From positions 896,001 through 960,000 of the forward strand of contig CBDCDC010000001.1 in the NCBI GenBank assembly GCA_965215195.1: a DNA stretch of 64,000 nt. Direction: 5' to 3'. The position numbers and the translations under genes are program-made. The notes under the pieces were generated by a model that was not told the DNA's origin, did not search any database, and saw nothing but the letters and a program-made list of their open reading frames with translations. The number at the start of each line of letters is the position of its first letter. Position 1 is the stretch's first letter. This DNA comes from Candidatus Latescibacterota bacterium. GTDB taxonomy: Bacteria > Latescibacterota > UBA2968 > UBA8231. Below are positions 9,283 through 29,166 of this stretch, in pieces.

Positions 9283-9453
9283 ACGTTCTACATCAATCTA
9301 CTAGCACCATCCCATTGGTGTGCGCCTGCTCAGGATTCCGGATTAATTGTCTATTACCCCACCAACCTAAAAAACCGGCCCTAAAAAGCGATGGATGACT
9401 CCAACTATAAGTCGCTTAACCCGAACTCACGTTACATTAAAGGGATTCTTTAT

Positions 9454-15400: not shown

Positions 15401-17820
15401 ACAACTGCTCAACCGGGGTGATTTTCACGGTCAGCAGTGGTGGGGGTGGCAGCACACGTCCCGACTTGGTGGTTGAATCGCCTTCGGTCAGCGACAACAC
15501 GCTGACGGCCGGACAATCCTTCACCCTGAGGGCCACCGTCCGCAATCGGGGTAATGCTCGGTCCGCCTCAACGACCTTGCTCTACTACTACCGCTCGGAC
15601 GATTCGTCGATAGTCGGCACGGATACTGTGAGCGGCCTTTCGGCTTCGGCGACGAGTGCGGAATCAATCAGTCTGATAGCCCCGTCACGTGCGGGCACGT
15701 ATTACTACGGCGCGTGTGTGGAAAGCGTCCCCGACGAAAGCGATACCAATAACAACTGCTCAACCGAGGTGCTCGTTACGGTCAGCAGCGATGGCGGCGG
15801 CAGTAGTCGTCCCGACTTGGTGGTTGAATCGCCTTCGGTCAGCGACAACACGCTGGCGGCCGGACAATCCTTCACCCTGAGTGCCACCGTCCACAATCGG
15901 GGTAATGGTCGGTCCGCCTCGACGACCTTGCGCTATTACCGCTCGTCCAATTCGTCGATCTCCACGAACGACAGGCAGGTCGGCACGGATACTGTGAGCG
16001 GCCTTTCGGCTTCGGCGACGAGTGCGGAATCAATCAGTCTGATAGCCCCGTCACGTGCGGGCACGTATTACTACGGCGCGTGCGTCGAAAGCGTCCCCGA
16101 CGAAAGCGATACCAATAACAACTGCTCAACCGAGGTGCGCGTCATGGTGGGCAGCGGTGGCGGTGGCAACGATGATCATAGCAATACCCGATCGGGCGCG
16201 ACCAACCTTCCTTTGGATGACTCACGCTCAGGGCGGATCGAAACCGGCGGGGATATCGATTACTTCCAAGTGCAAGTCAGCAGCTCTGGTACCTTGACCG
16301 TTTACACCACAGGCCGCACCGATACTTGGGGTACCCTGCAAAACAGTTCCGGTTCCGATCTGGCAAACGATGACGATGGAGGAGATGGTAACAATTTCCG
16401 CATCGAACGTACCGTGACTCCGGGCACCTACTACCTCCGAGTACGAGGGTATGACTCGTCAAAGACTGGAAGCTATACCGTTCACGCACGTTTTCAGAGG
16501 AGAGATGAGATCGGTGGCGGTGGCAACGATGATCACAGCGATACCCGATCGGGCGCGACCTTCCTTCCTTTGGGTGGGTCAGTCTTAGGGCGGATCGACA
16601 CCGGCGGGGATGTCGATTACTTCAGGGTGCAAGTCAGCAGCTCTGGGATCTTGACAGTTTACACCACAGGCGACACCGATACTTATGGGACCCTGCAAAA
16701 CAGTTCCGGTTCCGATTTGGCAAGCGATGACGATGGAGGAAGTGATAACAATTTCAGCATAGCACGTTCCGTGAGTGCGGGCACCTACTACATCCGAGTA
16801 CGAGGGTATGACTCGTCAGCGACTGGAAGCTATACCGTTCGCGCAAGTTTTCAGAGCGATGATACAGACTTCAATATCGAACTTGTCTTCCTCAATTCCG
16901 TCCTCACTTCATCTCAGTCGAACTCTGTGAAACAGATCGTCCAACAGGCGGCTACGCGCTGGGAGTCAGTCATTACAGGAGATCTTCCGGAGGTTGACCA
17001 CTCATCTAACCCGTGTGATATAGATATGAGAATAATAACAAGAAAATATACCAACCCCCCTATTCGCGTCGACGATGTCGTGGACGACCTGCGGATATTT
17101 GTTCATGTCGATAGCATTGACGGGTCAAGAAGAACTTTAGCACAGGCAACCCCGCTAGAGCTAAGGGATTCCCTCCTGCTGCCAGCTATCGCAGTGATAA
17201 TACTCGATGAAAGGGATATATCTAGTTCTAGTTCGTCGTATTTTCTGCAACGAATTGTTCTCCACGAGATGGCGCACGCTTTAGGGTTTACCGCCGATGT
17301 TTGGAATGAGAAAAATTTGATGCAGGGCCATGTATGGGATACGCTTTTCGGGCTCTTGCTAAAAGAAGATAGGGACGTGCGTTTCATTGGTCGGCGGGCA
17401 ATTGGGGCGTTCAACAACGCGGGAGGCCGGGATGATAAAGTGCCCGTGGAGAATTATACAACTGACGGGAAACGGAAGCCGGATTGGGGCACAGAATATT
17501 CTCATTGGAGGGAGTCCGTGTTCAGAGAAGGGAACAAGAGCGAGCTTATGGTCGGGAGAGTGGATACATCTTATGAATTTCCACTGAGCGCGATCACGAT
17601 CCAGTCCTTTGCCGATCTTGGCTACCAAGTTGACGCAAGTCAGGCCGACCCGTACACCATTCCCTCACCACCAGCAAGTAAGCCCGTTGCGGGCCATAGC
17701 TTGGAACTCAACTGTAGCTTGGACGTGAGGAGTATTCCTGTGGTTGATGAGAACGGACGCATCGTCCGCACCATCACACCATTTGCTTGGCGTTTGCCAT
17801 TAGGTCGGCGCGTGGATTAA
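9454..17820 (+). CDS. Giant secreted protein (~2788 aa): export/dockerin module, 3 six-bladed YWTD (LDL-receptor class B) propellers, 8 CARDB-like domains, 3 PPC-like domains, C-terminal leishmanolysin-like (M8) Zn-metallopeptidase
   Basis: Start MKFLYVCLMG parallels the 4907 gene; 18x KMYWTD...IQRANLDG; 8x PDLVVE..S; 3x DDHS.TRSGAT...GDVDYF; VLHEMAHALGF...SHW...ELM. Confidence 0.9.
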   Translation: MKFLYVCLMGLMLSAQANTAQPSTVAGQVQRADGRPVAGAQVTLFDLADLHQGAVARAMTNAAGHFALSLQSFSAGTALPDGFALGQNYPNPFNPSTIIPYQIPASAHVRLEVFNMLGQRLATLVDAERPAGAHTAQWDGTDAAGRAVGAGVYIYRLSSGEVSVSRRMVLVDGQAGMPAAGGAPGPVRAVEGLVEADGPVYGLTVSGEGLVPYVDPAFQVEAGRAWVEVVLAAPARAKRLPGEDRLLGDVDGKGRVDIVDALLVAASVGPTGLTTGGDLDGVDNGARLGLIDLGDVNGDGVVNLVDAYLIGVYSVNPSDPVLPAGIGKRVSFASDGTPNKMYWTDQNTNKIQRANLDGTNVEDLITNGLVHPDGIALDVGRGKMYWTDATTTDSDTRRIQRANLDGTNVEDLITNGLGHPVGLALDVGQGKMYWTDLGTDKIQRANLDGTNVEDLITHGLDLPKGLALDVGRGKMYWTDPSRRRIQRANLDGTNVEDLITNRLSQIKGLALDVGRGKMYWTDPSRRRIQRANLDGTNVEDLITNGLVHPDGIALDVGRGKMYWTDATTGKIQRANLDGTNVEDLITNGLNRPAGLALAALAGSDVSGENGGSSRPDLVVESPSVSDNPLTTGQSFTLSATVRNRGNGQSASTTLRYYRSDDSTISTTDGQVGTDTVSGLSASATSAESINLTAPSSAGTYYYGACVESVSDESDTNNNCSTGVLVMVGSPDPIVELPNKMYWADSGTNKIQRANLDGTNVEDLITGLRLRGLALDVGRGKMYWTASSADKIQQANLDGTNVEDLITHGLSHPVGLALDVGRGKMYWINWGTRKIQRANLDGTNVEDLITGLDAPEGLALDVGRGKMYWADAGTGSIQRANLDGTNVEDLITNGLDAPIGLALDVGRGKMYWTDAGTDKIQRANLDGSNVEDLITHGLSNRNPVGLALDVGRGKMYWTDWVTHKIQRANLDGTNVEDLITHGLSHPVGLALVALADSDVSGGDGGSSRPDLVVESPSVSDNPLTTGQSFTLSATVRNRGNGQSASTTLRYYRSDDSTISTTDGQVGTDTVSGLSASATSAESINLTAPSSAGTYYYGACVESVSDESDTNNNCSTGVLVTVGSPDPIVELPNKIYWTDQDTGKIQRANLDGSNVEDLITGLVVPDGIALDGGRGKMYWTQWGMDTGKIQRANLDGSNVEDLITGLERPSGIALDVGRGKMYWTDAGTDKIQRANLDGSNVEDLITSGISPTRIALDVERGKMYWTQWGAPGKIQRANLDGSNVEDLITSAGELKGRGIALDGVNGKIYWSETPSLKVSSSRIRRANLDGSNVEDLITNGLEYPIAIALDVGRGKMYWADVLKSKIQRANLDGSNVEDRITHGFYYPLAIALVALADSAVSGGGSRPGPDLVVEKPSFSDDRLRTGQSFTLSATVRNLGNGRSASTTLRYYRSDDSTISPNDRHVGTGNVSGLSASATSAESINLTAPSSVGEYYYGACVESVTDESDTNNNCSIGVRVTVRSRPDLVVENPSVRDNSLTTGQSFTLSATVRNRGNVRSASTTLRYYRSDDSTISPNDRQVGTDTVRGLSASATASESIYLTAPSRAGTYYYGACVESVADESDTSNNCSTGVRVTVDSGGGGSSRPDLVVESPSVSDNTLTAGQSFTLRATVRNRGNGRSASTTLRYYRSSNSSISTNDRQVGTDNVRGLSASATASESIRLTAPSRAGTYYYGACVESVTDESDTNNNCSTGVRVTVRSGGGGDLDDHSDTRSGATDLSLGDARSGRIETGGDVDYFRVQVSSSGILTVYTTGDTDTYGTLQNSSGSDLEDDDEAGLSNNFRIERSVSEGTYYIRVRGYDSSTTGSYTVRTRFRNGGGGSSRPDLVVESPSVSDNTLTAGQSFTLRATVRNRGNARSASTTLLYYYRSDDSTLSRPVGTDNVSGLSASATSAESIRLNAPSNAGTYYYGACVESVADESDTSNNCSTGVIFTVSSGGGGSTRPDLVVESPSVSDNTLTAGQSFTLRATVRNRGNARSASTTLLYYYRSDDSSIVGTDTVSGLSASATSAESISLIAPSRAGTYYYGACVESVPDESDTNNNCSTEVLVTVSSDGGGSSRPDLVVESPSVSDNTLAAGQSFTLSATVHNRGNGRSASTTLRYYRSSNSSISTNDRQVGTDTVSGLSASATSAESISLIAPSRAGTYYYGACVESVPDESDTNNNCSTEVRVMVGSGGGGNDDHSNTRSGATNLPLDDSRSGRIETGGDIDYFQVQVSSSGTLTVYTTGRTDTWGTLQNSSGSDLANDDDGGDGNNFRIERTVTPGTYYLRVRGYDSSKTGSYTVHARFQRRDEIGGGGNDDHSDTRSGATFLPLGGSVLGRIDTGGDVDYFRVQVSSSGILTVYTTGDTDTYGTLQNSSGSDLASDDDGGSDNNFSIARSVSAGTYYIRVRGYDSSATGSYTVRASFQSDDTDFNIELVFLNSVLTSSQSNSVKQIVQQAATRWESVITGDLPEVDHSSNPCDIDMRIITRKYTNPPIRVDDVVDDLRIFVHVDSIDGSRRTLAQATPLELRDSLLLPAIAVIILDERDISSSSSSYFLQRIVLHEMAHALGFTADVWNEKNLMQGHVWDTLFGLLLKEDRDVRFIGRRAIGAFNNAGGRDDKVPVENYTTDGKRKPDWGTEYSHWRESVFREGNKSELMVGRVDTSYEFPLSAITIQSFADLGYQVDASQADPYTIPSPPASKPVAGHSLELNCSLDVRSIPVVDENGRIVRTITPFAWRLPLGRRVD

Positions 17821-18788: not shown

Positions 18789-19106
18789 ATGTATTCGATT
18801 GGCTTGGCCATGCGGCTGCGTCCCAATGCGTACGCCGAGTACAAACAGGCCCACGACGACCTGTGGCCCGAAATCGCCGACAGCATGACCGACAACGAGG
18901 TCAGCATGGCCATCTATCGCTTGGGCGAACACCTCGTCATCCACGCGGTCGCCCCCACCGAGGAAGACTGGATCAAGAGCCGCCAAGTTCCCATTCTGGA
19001 AAAGTGGTACGCCTACATGGCCCAGTTGCTGGAGACCGACGACGAGGGGCAGATCATCTTCGAGGAGCTAGCCGAAGCCTTTGCCTTTGGTATGTTCAAG
19101 GGCTAG
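18789..19106 (+). CDS. rhaM: L-rhamnose mutarotase family protein
   Basis: MRLRPNAYAEYKQAHDDLWPEI...KWYAYMAQLLE; AAGGAG RBS. Confidence 0.75.
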   Translation: MYSIGLAMRLRPNAYAEYKQAHDDLWPEIADSMTDNEVSMAIYRLGEHLVIHAVAPTEEDWIKSRQVPILEKWYAYMAQLLETDDEGQIIFEELAEAFAFGMFKG

Positions 19107-19906
19107 GCCGCTTGCACCGGGTTTTGCAGCCGGCCGATCGGGTCTATTTCCACGATTACCTCGTCGCCGGCCGCGAGCCACACGGGCGGTTGGCGCGCAA
19201 AACCCACGCCCTGCGGGGTGCCGGTGAGGATGACCGTACCCGGCAGCAAGGTCGTATCTTGGCTGAGGAATTCGATCAGTTCGGCGACCGAGAAGATCAT
19301 GTCGCCGGTGGTGTGGTCCTGCATGGTCGCGCCGTTGAGGATCGTGCGGATGCCGAGGGTTTGCGGGTCCGGGATTTCGTCGGCTGTGACCAGCACCGGC
19401 CCCAAGGGGCAAAAGGTGTCAAAGCCCTTGCCGCGAATCCACTGACCGCCGCCGGCGTGGAGCTGCCACTTGCGGGCCGAGACGTCGTTGGCGCACGTGT
19501 ATCCGAGCACATAGCTGAGGGCGTCGGCCCGCGCCACATTGCGGGCGGCCTTGCCGATCACCACCGCAAGTTCGCACTCGTAGTCAACTTCCGGGCCGCG
19601 GCGACAGCAGGCTGGCAGCAGGATTGGGTCGCCCGGGCCGCAGACCGCGCTCGTGGGCTTGGCAAAGACGACGGGCTGCTCGGGCGGGGCGAGCCCGGAT
19701 TCGGCCGCGTGCTCTCGGTAGTTTAGCCCAATGCAGAAAATGTTGGTCGGAGCGAGCGGGGCGAGCCTCTTTTTGACGGCCACCTGTTCGCCCGTGGGCA
19801 CGAGTCCTCCGAAGAGATCGCCGGTGAGTGCGGAGGCTTGCCCGGCCTCGGCTTCGAGGCCCCAGCGGACGGCGTCGCCAGCGTCGATAAAGCGGATGAT
19901 GCGCAT
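19103..19906 (-). CDS. Fumarylacetoacetate hydrolase family protein
   Basis: CIGLNYREH, VDYECEL, ANDVSAR, GKGFDTFCPLGP, ILTGTPQGVG. Confidence 0.9.
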   Translation of the reverse strand: MRIIRFIDAGDAVRWGLEAEAGQASALTGDLFGGLVPTGEQVAVKKRLAPLAPTNIFCIGLNYREHAAESGLAPPEQPVVFAKPTSAVCGPGDPILLPACCRRGPEVDYECELAVVIGKAARNVARADALSYVLGYTCANDVSARKWQLHAGGGQWIRGKGFDTFCPLGPVLVTADEIPDPQTLGIRTILNGATMQDHTTGDMIFSVAELIEFLSQDTTLLPGTVILTGTPQGVGFARQPPVWLAAGDEVIVEIDPIGRLQNPVQAA

Positions 19907-20041
19907 GTCTTTCTCCTTTGTTTTCCAGCACTTGCACAAACCTTAAGGCAGGGCTGGCAGCTCGTCAAATAACCTTGACGCTTGAGGTGGGGCCGCCTAT
20001 TTTCCCCTTCTCAAAATTAAACCCAACGCGAGGAAAAGAGC

Positions 20042-21454
20042 GTGCCGCAAAACGTCAGCGAAGAACGCGTGCGCAAAATAGTCGAAGAAGTGGTGCAGCG
20101 AATCGTCAGCGGCGAGGGAGACCGCGAGGGCGGGGACACCGGCGTTTTCGCCGCGATCGATGCGGCCGTCCAAGGCGCGACCCGCGCCCAGCAGCAGTTG
20201 GTGGCCTTGTCGCTGGAGGAGCGCAAAAAGATCGTCGAGGCCCTCCGGCAGACGGCGCACGCCCACGCCGAGGAATTTTCGCGGCGGGCCTTGGCCGAGA
20301 CGGGCATGGGGCGGCTAGAAGACAAGATCATCAAGCACCAAGTCGCGGCCGACACAACGCCCGGCGTCGAAGACCTAGAGGCCGTTTCGTGGACCGGCGA
20401 CCACGGGCTGACCGTAGTCGAAATGGCCCCCTACGGGGTCATCGGCGCGGTCACTCCATCGACGCATCCCGTGCCGACGATGGTCAACAACGCCATTTGC
20501 ATTGTCGCCGCGGGCAACTCGGTCGTCTTTAACGTCCATCCGGCGGGCCGCAAGGTCTCCATGTTCGCGGTGGGGTTGATCAATCAAGCCATCGTCGCGG
20601 CCGGCGGGCCGGCCAACCTGGTGACCGCGGTCGAAACGCCGACCATTGAGACGGCCAACGAATTGTTCAACCACCCGGACGTCCGCTTGCTGCTGGTCAC
20701 CGGCGGGCCGGGCGTGGCCAAGGCCGCGCTGGGCAGCCCCAAAAAGGCCATTGTCGCCGGGCCGGGCAATCCGCCCGTGGTCGTCGATGAAACGGCCGAT
20801 CTGGCCAAGGCCGCGCACGACATCATCGACGGGGGGGGCTTCGACAACAACATCCTTTGCATCGGCGAGAAGCAGGTCTTTGCGGTCGCGGCGATTGCCG
20901 ACGAGCTCAAGCGGCTGATGGTCCAGTACAATGCATACGAGCTCGACGTGCGGCAGGTTGAGGCCCTCGCGCAGGTGGCCTTTGTCAAAGGACCGGACGG
21001 GCATGTCGCGGTCAACCGCGAGCTGGTGGGGCGCGACGCGGCCGTGCTGGGCGAGCGCATTGGCCTGCGGCTCGACTCGTCCCTGCGCATGCTCATTGGC
21101 GAGACCGACGCCAACCACGTTTTTGTGCGCGAGGAGCAGATGATGCCCTTTCTGCCAATCGTGCGGGTGCCCAATATCGACCAAGGCATTCGCGAGGCCG
21201 TCATCTCCGAGCACGGCTACGGGCACACGGCCGTGATCCATTCGCGCAACATCGAAAACATGCACAACATGGCCCGCGCGGTGGATACCACCATTTTCGT
21301 CAAGAACGGTCCTTCCTACGCCGGAGTTGGCTTGGGCGGCGAGGGCTTTGGGACGTACTCCATTGCCGGGCCTACGGGCGAGGGCCTGACGTCGCCGCGC
21401 ACTTTTACCCGCCAGCGCCGCTGCGCCCTCGTCGATTACTTCCGCATCACCTGA
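20042..21454 (+). CDS. BMC acylating aldehyde dehydrogenase (EutE/PduP-like) with N-terminal encapsulation peptide
   Basis: FDNNILCIGEK, EQMMPFLP, TGEGLTSPRTFTRQRRC; N-terminal amphipathic SEERVRKIVEEVVQRI. Confidence 0.9.
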   Translation: MPQNVSEERVRKIVEEVVQRIVSGEGDREGGDTGVFAAIDAAVQGATRAQQQLVALSLEERKKIVEALRQTAHAHAEEFSRRALAETGMGRLEDKIIKHQVAADTTPGVEDLEAVSWTGDHGLTVVEMAPYGVIGAVTPSTHPVPTMVNNAICIVAAGNSVVFNVHPAGRKVSMFAVGLINQAIVAAGGPANLVTAVETPTIETANELFNHPDVRLLLVTGGPGVAKAALGSPKKAIVAGPGNPPVVVDETADLAKAAHDIIDGGGFDNNILCIGEKQVFAVAAIADELKRLMVQYNAYELDVRQVEALAQVAFVKGPDGHVAVNRELVGRDAAVLGERIGLRLDSSLRMLIGETDANHVFVREEQMMPFLPIVRVPNIDQGIREAVISEHGYGHTAVIHSRNIENMHNMARAVDTTIFVKNGPSYAGVGLGGEGFGTYSIAGPTGEGLTSPRTFTRQRRCALVDYFRIT

Positions 21455-21768
21455 TGCTCTTGGGCCAAGTCAAAGGGCACTTGGTCGCCACGGCCAAGGT
21501 CCCGAGCCTCAACGGCAAGAAGCTCTTAGTCGTCGAAATCGCGTCGGTGCGCGAGCATGGTCTGGTGCTGACTGGGCGAGATATGGTGTGCATCGACGCA
21601 GTGCAAGCGGGCAAGGGCGAGTTGGTGATTTTGGTGCAGGGCAGCTCGTCGCGGATCGCCCCGAACTTGGCCGACGTGCCAGCCGACGCAGTAATCGTCG
21701 GGATCGTGGATTCGCTACAGGCCATGGGCAAGGACTTCGACTGCCGGCAACTGAGCCGCGGAGAATAG
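21454..21768 (+). CDS. BMC vertex pentamer (EutN/CcmL family)
   Basis: MLLGQVKGHLVATAK...DAVQAGKGELVILVQGSSSR...DAVIVGIVD. Confidence 0.9.
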   Translation: MLLGQVKGHLVATAKVPSLNGKKLLVVEIASVREHGLVLTGRDMVCIDAVQAGKGELVILVQGSSSRIAPNLADVPADAVIVGIVDSLQAMGKDFDCRQLSRGE

Positions 21769-21771
21769 GCG

Positions 21772-22443
21772 ATGGAAGCGGCTGGATTGGATCGCAAGCA
21801 GATTGAGGCACTGGTGCGCCAAGCGGTGTACGGTCACCTGCCCGACGCTCAGCTAGAGCAGGCACCCCCAGCCCCGAGGCTGGTCGTCAATATGTCCGCC
21901 CGCCACGTCCACCTCAATCAAAAGGCGCTGGACGCGCTCTTCGGCGCGAGTGCCGAGCTGACCGTGCAGAAGGCCCTGTACCAAGAGGGTGCTTTCGCCG
22001 CCGAGCAGACGGTGTCGGTTTTCGGCCCGCGCAAGCAGGTGATTCCCAAGGTGCGAATCCTCGGCCCATTGCGCGATTACAACCAAGTGGAACTGGCCTT
22101 TACGGACGCCCGCTTTTTGGGCATTGACGCGCCCGTGCGGCTCAGTGGCAACATCGAGGGGACGCCGGGCTGCTACTTGGTGGGGCCGGCCGGGGGGCTG
22201 GAGCTCGAGCGCGGAGTGATCCGGGCCGCCCGCCACGTACATCTGAATCCGGCTGAAGCCGCGTACTACGGGGTCGGCCCGGGGGACTTGCTGCGACTCA
22301 TAGTAGAAGGCGATCAGGGCGGGGTGCTAAAAGGGCTGATCTGCCGCGTCAGCGAGCGCGAGCGCCTCGAAGTTCACATCGACACGGACGAGGGCAATGC
22401 GATTGATTTGGTACATGCCCGCAAGGTATATTTGGAGCGTTGA
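21772..22443 (+). CDS. pduL: PduL-type phosphotransacylase
   Basis: SARHVHL, VRILGPLR, RLSGNIEGTPG, VIRAARHVHL, HIDTDEGNA; N-terminal encapsulation-like helix. Confidence 0.9.
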   Translation: MEAAGLDRKQIEALVRQAVYGHLPDAQLEQAPPAPRLVVNMSARHVHLNQKALDALFGASAELTVQKALYQEGAFAAEQTVSVFGPRKQVIPKVRILGPLRDYNQVELAFTDARFLGIDAPVRLSGNIEGTPGCYLVGPAGGLELERGVIRAARHVHLNPAEAAYYGVGPGDLLRLIVEGDQGGVLKGLICRVSERERLEVHIDTDEGNAIDLVHARKVYLER

Positions 22444-22480
22444 ACGCAAAAATCCGCACAATTACTTCAGGAGGTAAGGG

Positions 22481-23041
22481 ATGTCGGATGCAGTAGGTAT
22501 GGTAGAAACCGTGGGGCTGGTCGGGGTCGTCGAGGCCGGCGACGCCATGGCCAAGGCCGCCAGCGTACAGCTTTTGGGCTGGGACCGGGTCGGCTCCGGT
22601 TTGGTGACCGTGTTTTGCTCGGGCGATGTGGCGGCCGTCAAGTCGGCCGTGGATGCCGGCTCAACCGCTGCGGCCAAGGTTGGGGAGGTGCATTCGGTGC
22701 ATGTGATTCCCCGCCCGCACAGCGAGTTGACGGCCGTCGTGCCCGAGCGCAGCGACCGCAGCGACAGCGATGGTCGCGTCCGCGCCTTGGGCCTCATTGA
22801 GACGAAGGGGGCCATCGGCGTGATCGAAGCGGCCGACGCCATGAGCAAGGCCGCCGATGTGGAGATCGTCAAGCTCCAAGAAATCGGCGGCGGGTACATC
22901 ACCGCCATGGTCAGCGGCGACGTCGGCTCAGTGCAGGCTTCGGTCAGCGCTGGTGCCGAGGCGGCCGAGCGCGTGGGCGAGCTCGTGTCGCAGCACGTGA
23001 TTCCCCGCCCCCACGACGATCTCGTCGCTCTGTACTTGTAG
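22481..23041 (+). CDS. BMC shell protein with two tandem canonical BMC domains
   Basis: Two G(M/L)(V/I)ET.G...ADAM.KAA...GDV...HVIPRPH units. Confidence 0.9.
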   Translation: MSDAVGMVETVGLVGVVEAGDAMAKAASVQLLGWDRVGSGLVTVFCSGDVAAVKSAVDAGSTAAAKVGEVHSVHVIPRPHSELTAVVPERSDRSDSDGRVRALGLIETKGAIGVIEAADAMSKAADVEIVKLQEIGGGYITAMVSGDVGSVQASVSAGAEAAERVGELVSQHVIPRPHDDLVALYL

Positions 23042-23056
23042 GTAGAGGAGAAAAAA

Positions 23057-23320
23057 ATGAAAGCATTGGGCATGGTCGAGACCCGCGGTTTGGTCTGCGT
23101 CGTCGAAGCCCTCGACGCCATGTTGAAAACCGCCGACGTGAGCTATGCGGGCCAAAAGCGCGTGGGCAGCGGCCTAATCGCCGTGCTGGTCGAAGGCGAC
23201 GTAGCAGCCGTTAAAGCGGCCGTAGATGCAGGGGCGCAAGCCGCCCAGCGCATCGGCGAGCTGCGCAGCGTCCACGTGATTCCCCGCCCGACTGAGGGGC
23301 TGATAGACCACCTTGGTTAG
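23057..23320 (+). CDS. BMC-H hexamer shell protein
   Basis: ALGMVETRG...DAMLKTADV...GDVAAVKAAV...HVIPRP. Confidence 0.92.
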   Translation: MKALGMVETRGLVCVVEALDAMLKTADVSYAGQKRVGSGLIAVLVEGDVAAVKAAVDAGAQAAQRIGELRSVHVIPRPTEGLIDHLG

Positions 23321-23324
23321 CTAG

Positions 23325-23774
23325 GTGACCAAGGCTTTGCACATCGACGCCCCGGTCGTCACCGGCGACTTGCTCGGGCGCGAGCACAAGGGCGAGCGGG
23401 CACTCCGCGTGGCCCCCAGTGCCATCTTGACGCCGACGGCTTGGGATTACATCCGCCAGCACCGCTTGCAGCTAAATCGCGGCGAGCCTGTTGCGGCAGC
23501 CGTTGACGGCGTTGCGGCCGCGGGCCGGTGCGAGCATCCCGACCGCGCCTGCGGCTGCCAGCACGAGGAATTTGGCTCGGGGTACGTCGAGCCGGCGCAC
23601 TGCGGCGATTGCGCCGTCCACCAGCGCAAGAAGGAAGGCGACCCCGAGGCGAGTTGCGCAGGCTGCAACCGCTATAAGACGCTTTTGCAACAAATCGAGC
23701 AGGGCCAAGCCACCGACCCGGAAGCCCTAGTTGAGCAGATCACCGAGCTAGTAATTCACCGGCTGGCAGACTGA
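23325..23774 (+). CDS. Cys-rich BMC-associated hypothetical protein with C-terminal encapsulation-like peptide
   Basis: N-terminal VVT..L...AILTPTAWDYIR motif; 7 Cys including two CxxC; C-terminal DPEALVEQITELVIHRL. Confidence 0.7.
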   Translation: MTKALHIDAPVVTGDLLGREHKGERALRVAPSAILTPTAWDYIRQHRLQLNRGEPVAAAVDGVAAAGRCEHPDRACGCQHEEFGSGYVEPAHCGDCAVHQRKKEGDPEASCAGCNRYKTLLQQIEQGQATDPEALVEQITELVIHRLAD

Positions 23775-23777
23775 GCT

Positions 23778-24362
23778 ATGGCGGGGGCCCCGGCAGTCGG
23801 CATGATCGAGGTGGAGGGCGTAGCCGCCGCCATTGTGGGTGCGGATGCGGCTTGCAAGGCCGCAGACGTGGAGCTTGCGGGTTGGGCGTCAATCGGCGGT
23901 TATACCACGGCCTTTTTCACCGGGTCAATCAGCGATGTGGCCGCTGCGCTGCAAAGCGGCCAAGAAGCGGCCCGCAGGGTGATAGAACACGTGGTGGCCG
24001 TGCCCCTACACCAACCCGCTCCCGCCTGCCTCCATTTCGTCGATTTTCCGGCCCGTGCCCACAGCGACTTGCCCGCCGGTGCCTTGGGGTTGGTCGAGAC
24101 GCGCGGCTACGGGGATCACATTTACACCAACGATCAGATGGTCAAGACGGCTGCCGTTGAGGTAATCAACGTGCTGACGGTCCACGACCGCGTGGTGTGT
24201 TCGCTGGTCTTGGGGGACGTAGGGGCCGTCACCGAAGCCATAGCTGTCGCGCAAAAGTTGCTCGCAGGCTGCGAGCGCTTGCTGGGCACGGCACTGATCC
24301 CCCAGCCGCGGCCAGAGATTTTGGCCGCATACGCCGTGCCGCTGGGAGGTGGCGGTGTCTAG
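23778..24362 (+). CDS. Divergent two-domain BMC shell protein
   Basis: AVGMIEVEG..ADAACKAADV and ALGLVETRG..DQMVKTAAV..GDVGAV..IPQP. Confidence 0.85.
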   Translation: MAGAPAVGMIEVEGVAAAIVGADAACKAADVELAGWASIGGYTTAFFTGSISDVAAALQSGQEAARRVIEHVVAVPLHQPAPACLHFVDFPARAHSDLPAGALGLVETRGYGDHIYTNDQMVKTAAVEVINVLTVHDRVVCSLVLGDVGAVTEAIAVAQKLLAGCERLLGTALIPQPRPEILAAYAVPLGGGGV

Positions 24363-25503
24363 CGGGGCGCTCGGCATGCTGGAGACGCGCGGCATGGCGT
24401 CGCTGATGGCTTCCACCGACGCCATGCTCAAGGCCGCCCAAGTGCAACTCTGCGGTCGGCACGGCATTGGCGCGGGTTGGCTCACCGCAGTAATTGCCGG
24501 CCAAGTGGCTGATGTAGAGGCGGCCATTGGCGTTGGCGAGGTTGAGGCGAACCGCACCGGCGAACTGATTGGCGCACGAGTAGTGCCGCGGCCGGACGCA
24601 CGCGCCATGGACGCCATGCCCCACGCAACCGGGCTCGGTGCCGAACAGGTACAGCCGCGGGCGATAGGCTTGTTGGAAACGCAGGGGCTGACGCCGCTAG
24701 TGGCCGGTGCGGATGCCATGCTCAAGGCCGCCCAAGTGGAGCTAGGGGGTTGGGCTTTCATCGGCGGTGCCCTGTGCCACGCGCCGATCTTTGGCGATGT
24801 GGCGGCCGTGCAGACAGCGCTAGAAGCCGGCCGGCGAGCAGCCGAGCGGATCGGCACCGTGTATGCGACCCTCGTTTTGCCCCAGCCCAGCGAGGGGCTA
24901 GGCCCTCTGTTGCCGCCTGCGCCGGCGGCCGCGCCGCGCTCCACGGGTGCCTTGGGCCTCGTAGAGACCATTGGCTACGCCGCGGTCGTGGGCAGTGCCG
25001 ACGCCATGCTCAAGGCCGCGGATGTCCAAATTGAGCGCTTGAGCATCGGCAGCGGCGGGCGGATTGCCGCGCTGGGCATCGGCCAACTCGACGACGTGCA
25101 GGCCGCGGTGCGCGCCGGTGCCGAGGCCGCCACGGCCTTGGGCCAGCTCGACGCCTCGGCCGTAGTCTCGCGGCCCGATCCCATGCTAGTCGCCCGCTTT
25201 GCCACCGCGGCCGAGGGCCTTGGGCCGGGTGCGCGGCAGGCCATAGGGCTGATTGAGACGCGCAGCACCGTGGCCTTGGTGCGGGCTGTCGATCGGATGC
25301 TCAAGGCCGCGGCCGTCGAATACGAAGGGGCCTATAAGGTGGGGTACTACTTGACGGCCGCTGTCGTGCGCGGCGATGTCGGTGCCGTGCAGGTCGCCAT
25401 AGAGGCGGGTCGGCAGGAGGCTGTCGCACACGGGGAACTGGTCTCGGCCTACGCCATTCCCCAGCTCTACGGCGGGCTCGAAGGCCGCCTGCCGCACGTT
25501 TAG
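24349..25503 (+). CDS. BMC shell protein with four tandem BMC domains
   Basis: Four A(L/I)G(M/L)xET...D(A/R)MLKAA units in 384 aa; start overlaps the previous gene by 14 nt. Confidence 0.88.
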   Translation: MAVSSGALGMLETRGMASLMASTDAMLKAAQVQLCGRHGIGAGWLTAVIAGQVADVEAAIGVGEVEANRTGELIGARVVPRPDARAMDAMPHATGLGAEQVQPRAIGLLETQGLTPLVAGADAMLKAAQVELGGWAFIGGALCHAPIFGDVAAVQTALEAGRRAAERIGTVYATLVLPQPSEGLGPLLPPAPAAAPRSTGALGLVETIGYAAVVGSADAMLKAADVQIERLSIGSGGRIAALGIGQLDDVQAAVRAGAEAATALGQLDASAVVSRPDPMLVARFATAAEGLGPGARQAIGLIETRSTVALVRAVDRMLKAAAVEYEGAYKVGYYLTAAVVRGDVGAVQVAIEAGRQEAVAHGELVSAYAIPQLYGGLEGRLPHV

Positions 25504-25517
25504 GGAGGACGCGAAAA

Positions 25518-26687
25518 ATGATTCGGATTGACGATGCAGTAATTACCGCTCAGACCTTGGAGGGCCGCCTAGCTGGCGAACGGCAGGTTGAGCTCGGCCC
25601 GGGGGCCAAGCTGACGCCCTCGGCGCAGGATTTTTTGCGCGTCCAAGGCGTTGAGGTCGTGCGCCGGGAAGCCGATGGCCAAGCCCCCCCAACGCCAGTG
25701 CCAGCACCAGCGGTTCCTCGCGCCGAAGGTCGCAAGGCATTTGCTGGCATCTTCTGTCCCAATGTCGTCCTTTTCGACAGCCGCAACGAGATCAACCACG
25801 CCGAGATGGAGCGCTACGTCAACTGGCTGATCGAGGTCGGGATCCACGGGCTGTACCCCAACGGCAGCACGGGCGAGTTCGCGCGCCTGTCGCGGGAGGA
25901 GCGCCAAGACGTGGTGCGGCTGGTCTGCGAGGTCAACGCGGGGCGCGTACCCATACTGGCCGGTGCCAGCGAGGCCAACTTGCGCGACGTGCTCGAGATG
26001 GCCGAATACTACGCCTCGCTCGGGGTGGATGCCATTGCCCTGATGCCCCCCTATTACTACGAGATTTCCACCGAGAGCCTCTTCGAGTACTTCGCCGAAA
26101 TCGCCGGAGAATCGCCGCTGGACATCCTGCTGTACAATATCCCGCAATTTACCCAAGAGCTGTCGATAGATTTGATGGAGCGGCTCTTGCCCTACGAGCG
26201 GATCTTCGGCACCAAGGACTCCAGCCGCGACTTGCCGCGACTGCTCAACACCATGCACCGCCTGCGCCAACAACGCCCCGACTACGTGGTGATGACCGGC
26301 TGCGAGGAGATGGCGTTCCCCGCGGTGCTTATGGGTGCCAGTGGGGGCACCATTGCCACCTCGGGCATTGTCCCGGAAGTCATCGTCGAGCTCTACGAAA
26401 AGGCCAAAAGCGGCGACATTGAGCGCGCCCGCGAACTACAGTACCGCATCCTCGACCTAATCAATCTCATGCTCCTCGGGGTCAACTTTCCAGAGGGCTT
26501 CAAGACCGGCGTGGCAGCCCGCGGCTTTGACGTAGGCCCAGCGCGTGCGTTGAGCAGCGCGGCCGAGCAGGAGTATCTGCTCAAGCTAGAGGCGCAAATC
26601 AACTGCGTCCTCGCGGATATGGGCTATCCGGTAAACGGCCCCCGCGCCTGCCCGGCGACCAACCTGCCGCCGATCGTCGGTCGCTAG
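25518..26687 (+). CDS. DHDPS/NAL-family class I aldolase or lyase with an N-terminal BMC-associated extension
   Basis: GLYPNGSTGEF, LLYNIP, GTKDSS (Schiff-base Lys); N-terminal VITAQTL...GAKLTPSAQDFLR. Confidence 0.85.
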   Translation: MIRIDDAVITAQTLEGRLAGERQVELGPGAKLTPSAQDFLRVQGVEVVRREADGQAPPTPVPAPAVPRAEGRKAFAGIFCPNVVLFDSRNEINHAEMERYVNWLIEVGIHGLYPNGSTGEFARLSREERQDVVRLVCEVNAGRVPILAGASEANLRDVLEMAEYYASLGVDAIALMPPYYYEISTESLFEYFAEIAGESPLDILLYNIPQFTQELSIDLMERLLPYERIFGTKDSSRDLPRLLNTMHRLRQQRPDYVVMTGCEEMAFPAVLMGASGGTIATSGIVPEVIVELYEKAKSGDIERARELQYRILDLINLMLLGVNFPEGFKTGVAARGFDVGPARALSSAAEQEYLLKLEAQINCVLADMGYPVNGPRACPATNLPPIVGR

Positions 26688-27764
26688 ATGGCCTTGGCGG
26701 GCACTCGCGCGTTGGTGGTCGGGGCCGGTATCATCGGCCGCTCGACCGCCTATTTCCTCGCCCGGCAAGGCGCGAAGGTCATCCTGCTCGACGAGGGCAG
26801 TGCCGCTGGCTCGCCCACGAGCCGGGCCTCTTTGGGCGTCCTCACCCACTGCAACGGCGGCGACAATCCCTACGCCCAGCTCTTCCGCGACGGCCACGCT
26901 CTGCACGCCCGGCTGGCTTGCGACCTAGCCGAAGAGCTGGGCGCAGACGTGGGCTGGCGTCCCCTCGGCGGCATTGAGCTTTTTGCCGACGCATCCCAGC
27001 TAGAGGAAGTATGGCGTTTCAATCGCGCGCGCGGCTGTCGGGTTGAGCGGCTTGACGAGCGGGCCTTGGGCAGTGCGGAGCCAGCATTGGACAGCGGCTG
27101 CGAGGGCCTGTTTTTTGCCGACGATCACCGGGTGGATCCCCTCAAGTTGGGCGCAGCACTTTGGGCGGCGGCGGCCCAGCGGGGTGCGGTGGCCGCTTGG
27201 GGCGAGCGCGTCTGGCGCATTGCCCAAGCGGGCGCGTCCGTCGAGGTCGCCACCAGCCGCGGAACCCACCGCGCCGACTTTGCGGTCTTGGCGGCTGGGG
27301 CGTGGACCAGCGGCTTGGCCGCCCAGCTCGGTGCCCGAGTCGCGCTGCGTCCGGTGCGGGGCCAACAAGCGCGTTTTGCCGGTGCCCCGCTGCGCCACCT
27401 AGTGAGGATAAACGGACGCCATCTCATTCCAGACGGCGGCGAAACGGTCGTGGGCTCAACGGTGGAGGAGGTCGGCTTTCGGCTGGAAACGACCCGCGCG
27501 GCCGCGGCCGAGTTCGCCGCGCAGGTGCGCTCCGCGCTGGGGAGGGGCTTGCCCCTGTCGCGCCAGCAAGCTGGTCTGCGGCCCAAGCCCCGAGGCGGGC
27601 GTCCGCTCATCGGCCCGCTAACAGATGCGCCGCGAGTCTTCGTGGCCTCCGGGCACTACAAAAACGGCGTCTTGCTAGGCCCGATTACCGGCCAAATCGT
27701 CGCCCGCTGGATCGCCGCGGGAACCCCGGGGCGCGACATGCGCCGCTTCGCGCCCGAGCGTTGA
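26688..27764 (+). CDS. FAD-dependent oxidoreductase, D-amino-acid/glycine oxidase (DAO/ThiO) family
   Basis: VVGAGIIG, AAGAW, PVRGQ, AGLRP, SGHYKNGVLLGP. Confidence 0.85.
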   Translation: MALAGTRALVVGAGIIGRSTAYFLARQGAKVILLDEGSAAGSPTSRASLGVLTHCNGGDNPYAQLFRDGHALHARLACDLAEELGADVGWRPLGGIELFADASQLEEVWRFNRARGCRVERLDERALGSAEPALDSGCEGLFFADDHRVDPLKLGAALWAAAAQRGAVAAWGERVWRIAQAGASVEVATSRGTHRADFAVLAAGAWTSGLAAQLGARVALRPVRGQQARFAGAPLRHLVRINGRHLIPDGGETVVGSTVEEVGFRLETTRAAAAEFAAQVRSALGRGLPLSRQQAGLRPKPRGGRPLIGPLTDAPRVFVASGHYKNGVLLGPITGQIVARWIAAGTPGRDMRRFAPER

Positions 27765-27797
27765 ATTCATTTCCACCTAACACCGTTGAGGTTAAAC

Positions 27798-28739
27798 ATG
27801 CCATTGCAAAAGGAAGCCCTGCTCGCCGCGCTAAACTCGGTCACCTCCATCCCGGTGGTCCCTTTTCGCGGGGGGCAAATCGACTACGAGGCCCACGCCA
27901 AAAACATCAACTACTTGATGGAGAACAACCACTTAGACGGCGACCGCCCCCGGGTGATTGGCATCGCCGGCACCAGCTTGGTCCACCACATTAGCGCGGA
28001 CGAGCAAGTGCGGCTGTTGGGCTTTACCGGCGAGCAGATGGGGGGGCGCGGGGTGCTGATGGCCGGGATTGCCCCCAATCCGGTTGGGGATGCCGAGCGG
28101 TTGATTGAGCGGGAGGCCGCGCTCGAATACCCCCCGGATGTCTATCTCGTCATGCCGCTTACGGGCGTGGCGAGTCCAGAGGGCATTTTCGCGTACTACG
28201 CGGATTTTGCCGAGCGGCTGGGGCGCTCGTGCGGGGCCAAGCTGCTCTACTATCTGCGCAACCAAGCCGAGCGCGACATAGCCGTGCGGCTGATGAACGA
28301 ATCCGAGCACTTCGTGGGGCTGAAGATCGGCACCACGGTCGAGGATGTCGAGCCGATTGTCGCGGGTGTGGAAGAGGGGGCCGCGCTGGTGATCTGGGGC
28401 GTGGGCGACCGTTCGACCGGGCCGGCCGAGCGCGGCACCAAAGGCCACACCTCGGGGATCAACGTGGCCTTTGCCCGCGCCTCAGACGAGATCAACAACG
28501 CCCAGCGCCGGGGCGATTTTGCGACCTCGCAGCAGATTGAAAACCAGCTCGCAGCCCTAGAGGAAATTCGCTTTCGCGACGGCCGCATGTACAACTATTC
28601 AGCCGTGGTTGAGGCCATGCACTTGGGGGGATTCAGCGATGTGGATGGCGGCGAGGGCGGCCCGTTCAATCCGCGGGTGCCAGCGGAAGTGGCCGCGGAA
28701 GTGGCCGCGGCCATAGCCGACATTGTGGACTATCACTAG
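27798..28739 (+). CDS. Second, divergent DHDPS-family protein (KDG-dehydratase-like)
   Basis: SIPVVPF..GQIDY, LLYYLR, VGLKIG, GHTSGI. Confidence 0.7.
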   Translation: MPLQKEALLAALNSVTSIPVVPFRGGQIDYEAHAKNINYLMENNHLDGDRPRVIGIAGTSLVHHISADEQVRLLGFTGEQMGGRGVLMAGIAPNPVGDAERLIEREAALEYPPDVYLVMPLTGVASPEGIFAYYADFAERLGRSCGAKLLYYLRNQAERDIAVRLMNESEHFVGLKIGTTVEDVEPIVAGVEEGAALVIWGVGDRSTGPAERGTKGHTSGINVAFARASDEINNAQRRGDFATSQQIENQLAALEEIRFRDGRMYNYSAVVEAMHLGGFSDVDGGEGGPFNPRVPAEVAAEVAAAIADIVDYH

Positions 28740-29038
28740 CCTTGGCGGCGCAGCCGCTCTAGATAGGCCGCCCATTCGACCGGGAGCAGGTGCTGCTTTT
28801 GGCTGTTGCAGTGCTTGCAGCAAGGCACCACGTTGGACTTGGTGGTGCGGCCGCCGCGGATGAGCGGCACCACGTGATCCATGGTTAGCTCATAGGGCGC
28901 AAACGACTGCTGGCAGTAGTGGCACTGGCCAGCGGCCCGTCTGCGCTTCCACCACTCGGAGCGGCGCAGCACTTTGGCTTTGTTTTTTTCTCGGGCGACG
29001 TGCTCGGCGTCGGCTGGGATGAAGTATGTGCTTTCCAT
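28736..29038 (-). CDS. Stand-alone HNH endonuclease family protein
   Basis: CHYC...LTMDHVVPLIRGG...NVVPCCKHCNSQK. Confidence 0.85.
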   Translation of the reverse strand: MESTYFIPADAEHVAREKNKAKVLRRSEWWKRRRAAGQCHYCQQSFAPYELTMDHVVPLIRGGRTTKSNVVPCCKHCNSQKQHLLPVEWAAYLERLRRQG

Positions 29039-29074
29039 GCGAGAGCAAGATAGCGCAGAACGGGTGCAGCACAA

Positions 29075-29166
29075 ATGAACCTCAGCGAAGCCGATACCAG
29101 AGCCAAGCTCATCGATCCAGCCATTCACAGGCGCGGCTGGACAGAAGACCACATCCGGCGTGAGGA
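29075..29166 (+). pseudogene. hsdR: Remnant of type I restriction subunit N-terminus
   Basis: MNLSEADTRAKLIDPAIHRRGWTEDHIRRE, then unrelated sequence. Confidence 0.7.

Follow-up and report, generated by a model that had tools for sequence, protein, structure and literature searches.

A MUF2-type metabolosome locus of Latescibacterota and its candidate cargo aldolase of the DHDPS family

Several described microcompartments resemble parts of the system reported here. In the catalogue of bacterial microcompartment (BMC) locus types by Sutter, Melnicki, Schulz, Woyke, and Kerfeld (Sutter et al., 2021, Nat Commun 12:3809, PMC8217296), PVM compartments handle lactaldehyde and have a class II fuculose/rhamnulose-phosphate aldolase as their signature, RpiB (PF02502) is a signature family of SPU microcompartments, and the so-called EUT modules (EutABC and the EutL shell protein) are satellites added to HO/SPU compartments. 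New types are named there by taxon or, where they lack a function, as MUF, MIC or BUF; one of them, MUF2, is a metabolosome of unknown function that the catalogue text lists among the types without an obvious signature enzyme, that is, without an obvious source of the aldehyde. A phosphorylative compartment for fucose/rhamnose has been described in other Latescibacteria (Youssef et al., 2015, PMC4454575). Here we describe the gene content, domain architecture, conservation, and modular movement of an 11-gene metabolosome operon from a Candidatus Latescibacterota bacterium (assembly GCA_965215195.1, contig CBDCDC010000001.1, positions 896,001 to 960,000). This stretch of 64 kb, with a G+C content of about 0.6, is referred to below as the window, and the operon occupies positions 20042-28739 on its plus strand. 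The locus is a catalogued MUF2-type metabolosome, and the best candidate for its signature enzyme is a protein of the dihydrodipicolinate synthase (DHDPS) family, which we name DHDPS1.

The type was assigned through the labels that syntenic orthologs carry in the tree files of the catalogue, rather than with the catalogue's own hidden Markov models (HMMs). In the BMC-T tree file, proteins of 187-194 residues from the 'Gemmatimonadetes' metagenome-assembled genomes CME04, CME13, CME20, CME25, CME28, and CME10 are labeled MUF2 (main or satellite) and belong to the subclade Ts_hazel, and one MUF2 entry comes from an Armatimonadetes genome (PMC8217296). Homologs of the 194-residue shell protein of the window, located at the same gene position, include these very proteins: locus L026 corresponds to CME20_01425 (74% identity) and L056 to CME25_02550 (54%), and the L053 protein (53%) clusters with CME13_09850. 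Since these orthologs carry MUF2 labels, the window locus is a MUF2 locus; it shares the encoded aldehyde dehydrogenase (AldDH) with the type and shows no structural difference from what the catalogue text reports. The type is thus not new, contrary to the preliminary description of this DNA, which had called the metabolosome atypical in the sense of undescribed; as far as the type is concerned, this is the outcome that the preliminary description had named as a ground for refutation. The catalogued MUF2 loci themselves (L026 and others) contain DHDPS1 and two further enzymes of the window operon, an oxidoreductase of the D-amino-acid oxidase (DAO) family and a second DHDPS-fold protein, DHDPS2. 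The HMM table of the catalogue holds no model for the DHDPS family (PF00701) and a PF01266 model, the family of DAO, only for MIC6. Neither PF00701 nor a DHDPS term occurs in the supplementary files searched, a set that did not cover the locus drawings of Supplementary Data 2, which may already show the DHDPS genes. In full-text literature searches, 'MUF2' turned up only in the catalogue and its preprint, none of the papers found connected microcompartments with DHDPS or dihydrodipicolinate-family enzymes, and no relevant paper joined a microcompartment with 2-keto-3-deoxy compounds and lactaldehyde. Naming DHDPS1 and its N-terminal domain as the MUF2 signature goes beyond the text and the HMM table of the catalogue.

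According to Pfam and NCBIfam scans, the operon opens with genes for a CoA-acylating AldDH (20042-21454; PF00171; NF011927 at 649.6 bits, cut-off 403), a BMC-P pentamer, or vertex, protein (21454-21768; PF03319, 84.1 bits), and a PduL-type phosphotransacylase (21772-22443; PF06130, 218.9 bits over residues 39-212). Both AldDH and PduL start with an amphipathic helix resembling an encapsulation peptide. They are followed by a 186-residue two-domain shell protein of the BMC-T type (22481-23041; two PF00936 stretches) and an 87-residue BMC-H hexamer protein (23057-23320; PF00936, 91.4 bits), so that the genes characteristic of a metabolosome, i.e., acylating AldDH, phosphotransacylase, and BMC-H/T and BMC-P shell genes, are all present. 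The next three genes encode U149, a 149-residue protein without a Pfam or NCBIfam family (23325-23774), the 194-residue two-domain shell protein orthologous to the Ts_hazel proteins of MUF2 (23778-24362; two PF00936 stretches), and a 384-residue shell protein with four PF00936 stretches (24349-25503; 247.8 bits). Homologs of the latter measure 382-394 residues in the 17 of 70 listed; the catalogue text distinguishes six shell-protein classes, none of them with four domains (PMC8217296), and a trimer of such a protein would yield two linked pseudohexamers. The operon ends with DHDPS1 (25518-26687, 389 residues; PF00701, 192.7 bits over residues 75-361), DAO, a flavin adenine dinucleotide (FAD)-dependent enzyme (26688-27764, 358 residues; PF01266, 190.3 bits), and the divergent DHDPS2 (27786-28739; PF00701, 43.1 bits). 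Neighboring genes are separated by -14 to +37 bases; therefore, it was correctly stated before that the aldolase, the oxidase, and the second DHDPS follow the AldDH-pentamer-PduL-shell genes without gaps. In the open reading frames (ORFs) scanned at 17.9-29.9 kb and in 37 further ORFs of the window, we found neither a B12 or glycyl-radical enzyme nor a class II aldolase, an alcohol dehydrogenase or an acetate kinase. The earlier claim that these enzymes are absent is accurate for the locus; however, it does not extend to the genome, where the class II aldolase (PF00596) and the acetate kinase that PVM loci contain are both encoded elsewhere in single copies.

The catalytic domain of DHDPS1 places the protein in the DHDPS/NAL superfamily of class I aldolases. 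In addition to the PF00701 match, it has a GSTGE motif, the segment YNIPQFT, which is identical to that of the Picrophilus 2-keto-3-deoxygluconate (KDG)/2-keto-3-deoxy-6-phosphogluconate (KDPG) aldolase (4uxd), and a lysine within G-T-KDSS that aligns with those of 4uxd and Escherichia coli YagE (2v8z); we take this lysine and the tyrosine of the second motif to be the Schiff-base lysine and the catalytic tyrosine, respectively. Among 18 sampled DHDPS1 proteins, the lysine and the tyrosine are each retained in 17, and GSTGE in all. The same two 2-keto-3-deoxy-sugar-acid aldolases are the best solved relatives (132.3 bits for 4uxd and 128.5 bits for YagE), closely followed by DapA, NanA, and the mitochondrial 4-hydroxy-2-oxoglutarate aldolase (101.6 bits). 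Because the scores for 4uxd and YagE lie near those for DapA and NanA, DHDPS1 represents a separate subfamily, and it scores under the equivalog cut-offs of NanA (NF003164, 165.2 against 281 bits), DapA (TIGR00674, 153.5 against 206.15), archaeal KDG aldolase (NF040954, 121 against 390), and KdgD (TIGR03249, 93.8 against 373.95). Among the 12 DHDPS-family paralogs of the genome, it constitutes a separate clade (100/100 support) on a long stem, distinct from the DapA-like paralog; a paralog other than DHDPS1 and DHDPS2 reaches 317 bits on PF00701. In contrast to 4uxd and YagE, DHDPS1 has about 75 extra residues at the N-terminus, made up of a domain and a linker, and extends past the Pfam domain by a conserved Pro-rich tail (residues 362-389), in which C363, L365, D367, M368, G369, Y370, C378, P379, T381, P384, and I386 are invariant.

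The N-terminal domain (residues 1 to about 50; hereafter N-domain) is conserved in all 73 full-length N-termini compared, and is followed by a variable linker rich in Pro and Ala. The same domain opens U149, and a profile search of the genome matched only these two proteins. In the AlphaFold2 model of U149, the N-domain forms a beta-alpha-beta-alpha-beta unit with a predicted local distance difference test (pLDDT) score above 90; Pfam searches with the N-domain and with U149 at E <= 10 gave nothing meaningful. Among 1.84 billion representative proteins, the N-domain profile matched 1121 at E <= 1e-3 and 104 at 1e-10. We scanned 21 of the 150 N-domain proteins listed: three contain PF00701 (two above the cut-off), six have a sub-threshold match to RpiB, and 12 belong to no family; the names of eight N-domain proteins were uninformative. 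Two layouts were seen in these proteins, namely an amphipathic helix, linker, N-domain, and RpiB-like part in this order, or the architecture of U149. A word-indexed search with residues 1-55 of DHDPS1 returned only DHDPS fusions (51 of 149 candidates). Within the phylum, the N-domain occurs in 123 of the 168 genomes searched, and in 38 of 52 genomes of high quality, usually in two copies in the family of the window and in one copy in the families with the class-B locus architecture described below. In one Latescibacterota genus, a full RpiB (PF02502, 152.5 bits) lies behind an encapsulation-peptide-like helix and the N-domain, as exemplified by a 242-residue protein (L182:9824-10552, minus strand). 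Some proteins of the RpiB family, which supplies the cargo of SPU compartments, thus share the domain of about 50 residues, although their catalytic domain differs from that of DHDPS1. DHDPS1 itself is devoid of a classic short amphipathic encapsulation peptide, and U149 ends in a helix that resembles both such peptides and the C-terminus of the class II aldolase of the genome. Judged by these sequence features, DHDPS1 has the marks of a cargo enzyme that is probably targeted to the shell by its folded N-domain.

To follow the locus across genomes, species-representative genomes were scanned with DHDPS1, which gave 127 pattern matches; 88 of these encode relatives, and 77 distinct loci were kept, mostly from metagenome-assembled genomes labeled Latescibacterota, with others labeled Gemmatimonadetes or Gemmatimonadota and one each Handelsmanbacteria and Planctomycetota. 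The window proteins were mapped onto these loci by tblastn, and counts were restricted to loci with sufficient flanks. Of the 71 loci with at least 1.9 kb upstream, 70 have a homolog of the four-domain shell gene that stops less than 200 nt ahead of DHDPS1, and all 71 have the 194-residue shell gene within 1.5 kb upstream of it. Downstream, DAO starts less than 400 nt after DHDPS1 in 56 of the 74 loci with at least 2.3 kb of sequence, and DHDPS2 follows in 50 of these 74. Conservation of the DHDPS and DAO genes next to the shell genes, the lack of which in relatives the preliminary description had regarded as a ground for refutation, is thus supported. Where flanks of at least 6 kb upstream and 2.3 kb downstream were available (63 loci), two classes can be distinguished. 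Class A (48 loci) resembles the window and always includes AldDH, PduL, U149, and DAO, with DHDPS2 in 44 of the 48 loci and the downstream HNH gene in 47. Class B (15 loci) consists of the 194-residue shell gene, the four-domain shell gene, and DHDPS1 only, without AldDH, PduL, U149, DAO, or DHDPS2. In five class-B genomes, an AldDH 58-59% identical to that of the window is encoded far from this trio. In L083, whose main locus is the only one of class B scanned with Pfam, AldDH is accompanied by PduL, BMC-H, three BMC-P proteins, a class II aldolase, and acetate kinase, i.e., by a PVM-like gene set, and L084 gave the same tblastn matches. The joint relocation of DHDPS1 and the two shell genes in 15 of 63 loci indicates a linkage that survives rearrangement, and this observation carries weight. 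Downstream of DHDPS1, the class-B loci encode a CehA/McbA-like metallohydrolase, PhyH dioxygenases, a Zn-dehydrogenase, DapF, and enolase-superfamily dehydratases, one of which exceeds the galactonate dehydratase cut-off; given the close relationship among the class-B loci, little weight can be put on this context. A signature enzyme that travels with its own shell proteins as an add-on recalls the EUT modules of the catalogue (PMC8217296). However, both the enzyme family and the shell proteins are different here (DHDPS1 with the 194-residue BMC-T and the four-domain protein), and in the lineage of the window the module is integrated into the main operon.

The assembly that contains the window (6.13 Mb in two contigs, 95.2% complete, 8.5% contamination) also encodes, outside the window, one more BMC-H, a BMC-P triplet behind a LytB gene, one acetate kinase, and one class II aldolase, which lies on contig 2 among housekeeping genes. 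This aldolase shares 47% identity with its counterpart in the class-B PVM-like locus, and both end in an encapsulation-peptide-like helix after a variable linker, so that the compartment of the window probably also receives a fuculose/rhamnulose-phosphate-type aldolase. An aldolase-fed AldDH/PduL core and a BMC-P triplet are thus common to this genome and to the PVM and PVM-like metabolosomes, as far as the catalogue text describes them (PMC8217296), and in sister genomes that carry the DHDPS1 module the main locus is PVM-like. Unlike in PVM loci, the aldolase encoded in the window locus is of class I (DHDPS fold, Schiff base) and would act on a non-phosphorylated keto-deoxy acid, it bears a domain of about 50 residues instead of a short C-terminal peptide, and acetate kinase and class II aldolase are encoded outside the locus. 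With regard to sugar acids, the genome contains 26 enolase-superfamily acid-sugar dehydratase paralogs, none of them above the rhamnonate dehydratase cut-off; RhaA isomerase was not found in the genome. The acetate kinase gene is located directly behind one of these dehydratase genes (G000:C2:1414749-1417206), with an HpcH/HpaI aldolase gene nearby, an adjacency that all 25 genomes of the genus share but none of the five other listed genomes shows. Together with the genes for a RhaM-family mutarotase and a fumarylacetoacetate (FAA)-hydrolase family protein upstream of the operon, these features lend indirect support to a link with lactaldehyde.

We consider it moderately probable that the locus encodes a MUF2 metabolosome whose shell houses the cleavage of a 2-keto-3-deoxy sugar acid by DHDPS1. 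The core would be PVM-like, with AldDH and PduL, each bearing an N-terminal encapsulation peptide, in a shell of BMC-P, BMC-H, and multi-domain BMC proteins, whereas further vertex proteins, BMC-H, the tagged class II aldolase, and acetate kinase would be supplied from elsewhere in the genome. DHDPS1, presumably a pyruvate aldolase of class I that works through a Schiff base, like KDG aldolase and YagE, would be brought to or into the shell by its N-domain, alongside the dedicated 194-residue BMC-T and the four-domain protein. It would split the keto-deoxy sugar acid into pyruvate and an aldehyde, which would then be converted via acyl-CoA and acyl-phosphate to yield ATP through acetate kinase. 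We infer the encapsulation of DHDPS1, its substrate, and every flux in this scheme. Since the DHDPS1 module is an add-on to PVM-like compartments, the simplest assumption is that it supplies an aldehyde identical or similar to theirs. The likeliest product is L-lactaldehyde from 2-keto-3-deoxy-L-fuconate or 2-keto-3-deoxy-L-rhamnonate, to which we give somewhat less than an even chance; glycolaldehyde or glyceraldehyde from other keto-deoxy acids are the alternatives. The idea of a keto-deoxy-sugar-acid aldolase that produces an aldehyde such as lactaldehyde had been put forward in the preliminary description and is the best-supported reading. More tentatively, and with a greater chance of being wrong than right, DHDPS1 and its two private shell proteins could be viewed as a portable substrate-extension cassette that adds a non-phosphorylative sugar-acid branch to a PVM-type compartment. 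The N-domain would then represent a new, widespread class of targeting domains distinct from the short amphipathic encapsulation peptides, and the four-domain protein could form a covalently linked double tile that acts as the docking site or substrate gate of the cassette; in the lineage of the window, the cassette would have taken over the main operon and recruited a flavoprotein, a second DHDPS-fold enzyme, and the Cys-rich U149, which would use both targeting devices.

These proposals bear on a type that is common in the phylum, as the distribution of the DHDPS1-type N-domain over the genomes searched demonstrates. If DHDPS1 is the cargo aldolase, MUF2 gains a testable function, namely non-phosphorylative catabolism of sugar acids with a sequestered aldehyde, and class I aldolases of the DHDPS type are added to the signature enzymes of microcompartments, next to those of the class II and DeoC types. 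The folded domain of about 50 residues would then be a candidate targeting device, useful for shell engineering.

The three other proteins characteristic of the window operon are confined to the class-A architecture (63 loci and five class-B genomes compared). In U149, the N-domain is followed by a variable linker, a Cys-rich segment, and the C-terminal encapsulation-peptide-like helix; its AlphaFold2 model is of low confidence in the Cys-rich part and places the helix at residues 132-148. Six cysteines are conserved in the alignment (C69, C78, C93, C96, C111, and C114), which suggests a metal or cluster site, and as a guess from these features U149 might be a metal- or cluster-binding adaptor. 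A profile search of the five class-B genomes did not find U149, and DHDPS1 is the only N-domain protein there. DAO is nearest to the glycine oxidase ThiO (TIGR02352, 163.1 bits, under the cut-off of 250.8), scores 92.8-106.5 bits with glycine oxidases of the PDB, and retains a G-x-RP segment that aligns with these enzymes; its best matches in the five class-B genomes are only 31-34% identical. DHDPS2 has a mean column identity of 79% and an invariant lysine, K180, in the alignment, and its model has a pLDDT of 90.2. The nearest structures are 3e96 and 3d0c, two structural-genomics entries named DHDPS, followed by DapA and keto-deoxy-galactarate dehydratase; the protein scores 30.3 bits against the DapA cut-off of 206.15 (TIGR00674), and the five class-B genomes contain no match to it at E <= 1e-10. 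The family of DHDPS2 is a widespread uncharacterized subfamily, with 946 proteins at E <= 1e-20 among 8000 candidates scored. A metagenome scan with a member labeled Poribacteria gave 56 loci, 22 of which adjoin window-like DAO, HNH, or microcompartment genes; the remaining 34 (43-64% identity), many of them short, have no such neighbors. Nine of the longer loci without microcompartment genes were scanned with Pfam. Four lie among sugar and sugar-acid genes (sulfatases, UxuA-like and enolase-superfamily dehydratases, GFO/IDH/MocA and aldo-keto reductases, PhyH, and gluconolactonase), and the other five are accompanied by secretion-system and housekeeping genes. No targeting extension is evident in DAO or DHDPS2. 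We read the three proteins as an accessory set, DAO and DHDPS2 being lineage-specific, and our guess is that they form a second feeder branch. Thus, where the preliminary description regarded DHDPS-family lyases plus DAO as the signature enzymes, DHDPS1 stands as the best candidate, but DAO and DHDPS2 do not, given their absence or distant matches in class-B genomes.

Several observations weigh against a DHDPS1-fed compartment. No enzyme of the locus scores above an equivalog cut-off, so that homology assigns no substrate, and an alcohol dehydrogenase for NAD+ recycling was not found among the ORFs scanned in the locus. Three of the 18 sampled DHDPS1 proteins deviate in the catalytic region: the Schiff-base lysine is replaced by Met in L019 and the tyrosine by Cys in L005, and L018 reads NSRRFT; these deviations, in close relatives with DHDPS1 at 10001-11180, could be assembly errors or reflect decay or relaxed selection. 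The N-domain is without a convincing match among solved structures (for the U149 model, Foldseek gave none at E <= 0.001, and the best VIA-align Z was 4.8), its binding to the shell is a prediction from sequence, and in two genomes with an N-domain RpiB no match to the shell proteins, AldDH, or PduL of the window was obtained by tblastn within 10 kb of it. The sugar-related neighbors are unevenly kept, with RhaM in only 18 and the FAA-hydrolase family protein in only 35 of the 48 class-A loci, and the dehydratase-acetate kinase adjacency, being confined to one genus, gives weak support only. Furthermore, synteny downstream of class A extends to unrelated genes, namely the HNH gene, a gene with a LON substrate-binding domain, and a DtxR-type repressor gene, which makes adjacency alone weak among close relatives. 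Contigs 90-99% alike to the window, from four RNA-library runs that belong to two studies, cover 18.7-29.2 kb; of the 30 depth bins, two runs cover all and the other two 28 and 29, and up to 5.3 kb of the operon is spanned by a single contig; since such contigs may contain DNA, they offer only a weak hint, and no proof, that the operon of a close relative is expressed.

Some of these points would fit a different view, in which DHDPS1, DAO, and DHDPS2 are cytosolic and merely syntenic with the shell genes, and the tagged class II aldolase is the sole cargo aldolase of a fragmented PVM-type fucose/rhamnose compartment. The kinship of this aldolase with the microcompartment aldolase of the sister lineage, down to the same C-terminal helix, the BMC-P triplet satellite, the reach of synteny into unrelated genes, the missing short encapsulation peptide of DHDPS1, and the loss of the catalytic lysine in one relative all agree with it. 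We nevertheless regard it as unlikely, because DHDPS1 and the two shell genes moved jointly in 15 of 63 loci, U149 combines the same N-domain with an encapsulation-peptide-like helix, and the N-domain follows such a helix in RpiB proteins as well. The two remaining explanations start from DAO. DAO-family and DHDPS-family proteins are the known enzyme pair of bacterial hydroxyproline catabolism, and keto-deoxy-galactarate dehydratase forms alpha-ketoglutaric semialdehyde. As the preliminary description had also proposed, DAO might oxidize D-hydroxyproline or a related amino acid, with DHDPS2 acting as a deaminase or dehydratase that yields alpha-ketoglutaric semialdehyde for oxidation by AldDH. 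The G-x-RP segment of DAO and the presence of the galactarate enzyme among the structural neighbors of DHDPS2 are compatible with this route. However, no match to the Pro_racemase family of epimerases (PF05544) was detected in the 95.2%-complete genome, and DHDPS2 relatives outside microcompartment loci (52-62% identity) have no DAO neighbor and occur in sugar or sugar-acid settings in four of the nine scanned loci and among unrelated genes in the other five. These neighbors, together with the missing epimerase, argue against hydroxyproline and for a role in sugar or sugar-acid metabolism; moreover, the two enzymes lack evident targeting extensions, and five genomes keep DHDPS1 and its shell genes without DHDPS2 and with only distant DAO matches. 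The hydroxyproline route is therefore improbable. Glycine oxidases being the best named relatives of DAO, and a 4-hydroxy-2-oxoglutarate aldolase being among the matches of DHDPS1, one may also envisage that a ThiO-like DAO converts glycine to glyoxylate, that DHDPS1 releases glyoxylate and pyruvate from 4-hydroxy-2-oxoglutarate, and that the compartment sequesters glyoxylate. We find this most improbable: DAO stays below the ThiO cut-off and is only distantly matched in genomes with the DHDPS1 module, keto-deoxy-sugar-acid aldolases outscore the oxoglutarate aldolase for DHDPS1, and the surroundings point to sugars and sugar acids. Cleavage of a 2-keto-3-deoxy sugar acid by shell-targeted DHDPS1 is consequently the reading we prefer.

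The genes upstream of the operon are as previously described. A RhaM-family mutarotase (18789-19106, plus strand; PF05336, 55.5 bits with a cut-off of 23.4; TIGR02625, 43.3 bits, below the cut-off of 99.6) is a neighbor only in the closest relatives of the window locus. The FAA-hydrolase family protein (19103-19939, minus strand; PF01557, 258.5 bits) is divergent from AldDH and the operon. Its best NCBIfam match is 2,4-didehydro-3-deoxy-L-rhamnonate hydrolase (NF053535, 220.2 bits, under the cut-off of 500), and in the PDB it matches HpcE (225.9 bits) and L-2,4-diketo-3-deoxyrhamnonate hydrolase (8gsr, 182.8 bits); it may be a diketo-deoxy-acid hydrolase. A scan for promoters and terminators gave counts at the chance level (2 against 1.8 and 10 against 9.3 expected), and a promoter-like site at 19975-20003 is therefore no evidence of a promoter. 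At the 3' end of the operon lies the convergent HNH-domain gene (28736-29152, minus strand; PF14279 and PF01844), which probably reflects backbone synteny and is not part of the system. Its product has weak NCBIfam matches to the HNH parts of Cas9d and IscB, and such conservation is unusual for a nuclease gene. Between this gene and the LON-domain and DtxR genes, which are adjacent to it in relatives, the segment 29400-32300 has a G+C content of 0.475 and encodes three TIR/ThsB-like proteins, an 8xMP membrane protein, a helix-turn-helix protein, and a PcfJ-like protein; it looks like an inserted defense island. Further upstream, at 9391-17820, an ORF of 2809 codons combines LDL-receptor class B repeats, CARDB, PPC, and a leishmanolysin-like peptidase domain, and it adjoins a gene for a 1054-residue protein with PD40 repeats, a dockerin, and an FGE-sulfatase domain.

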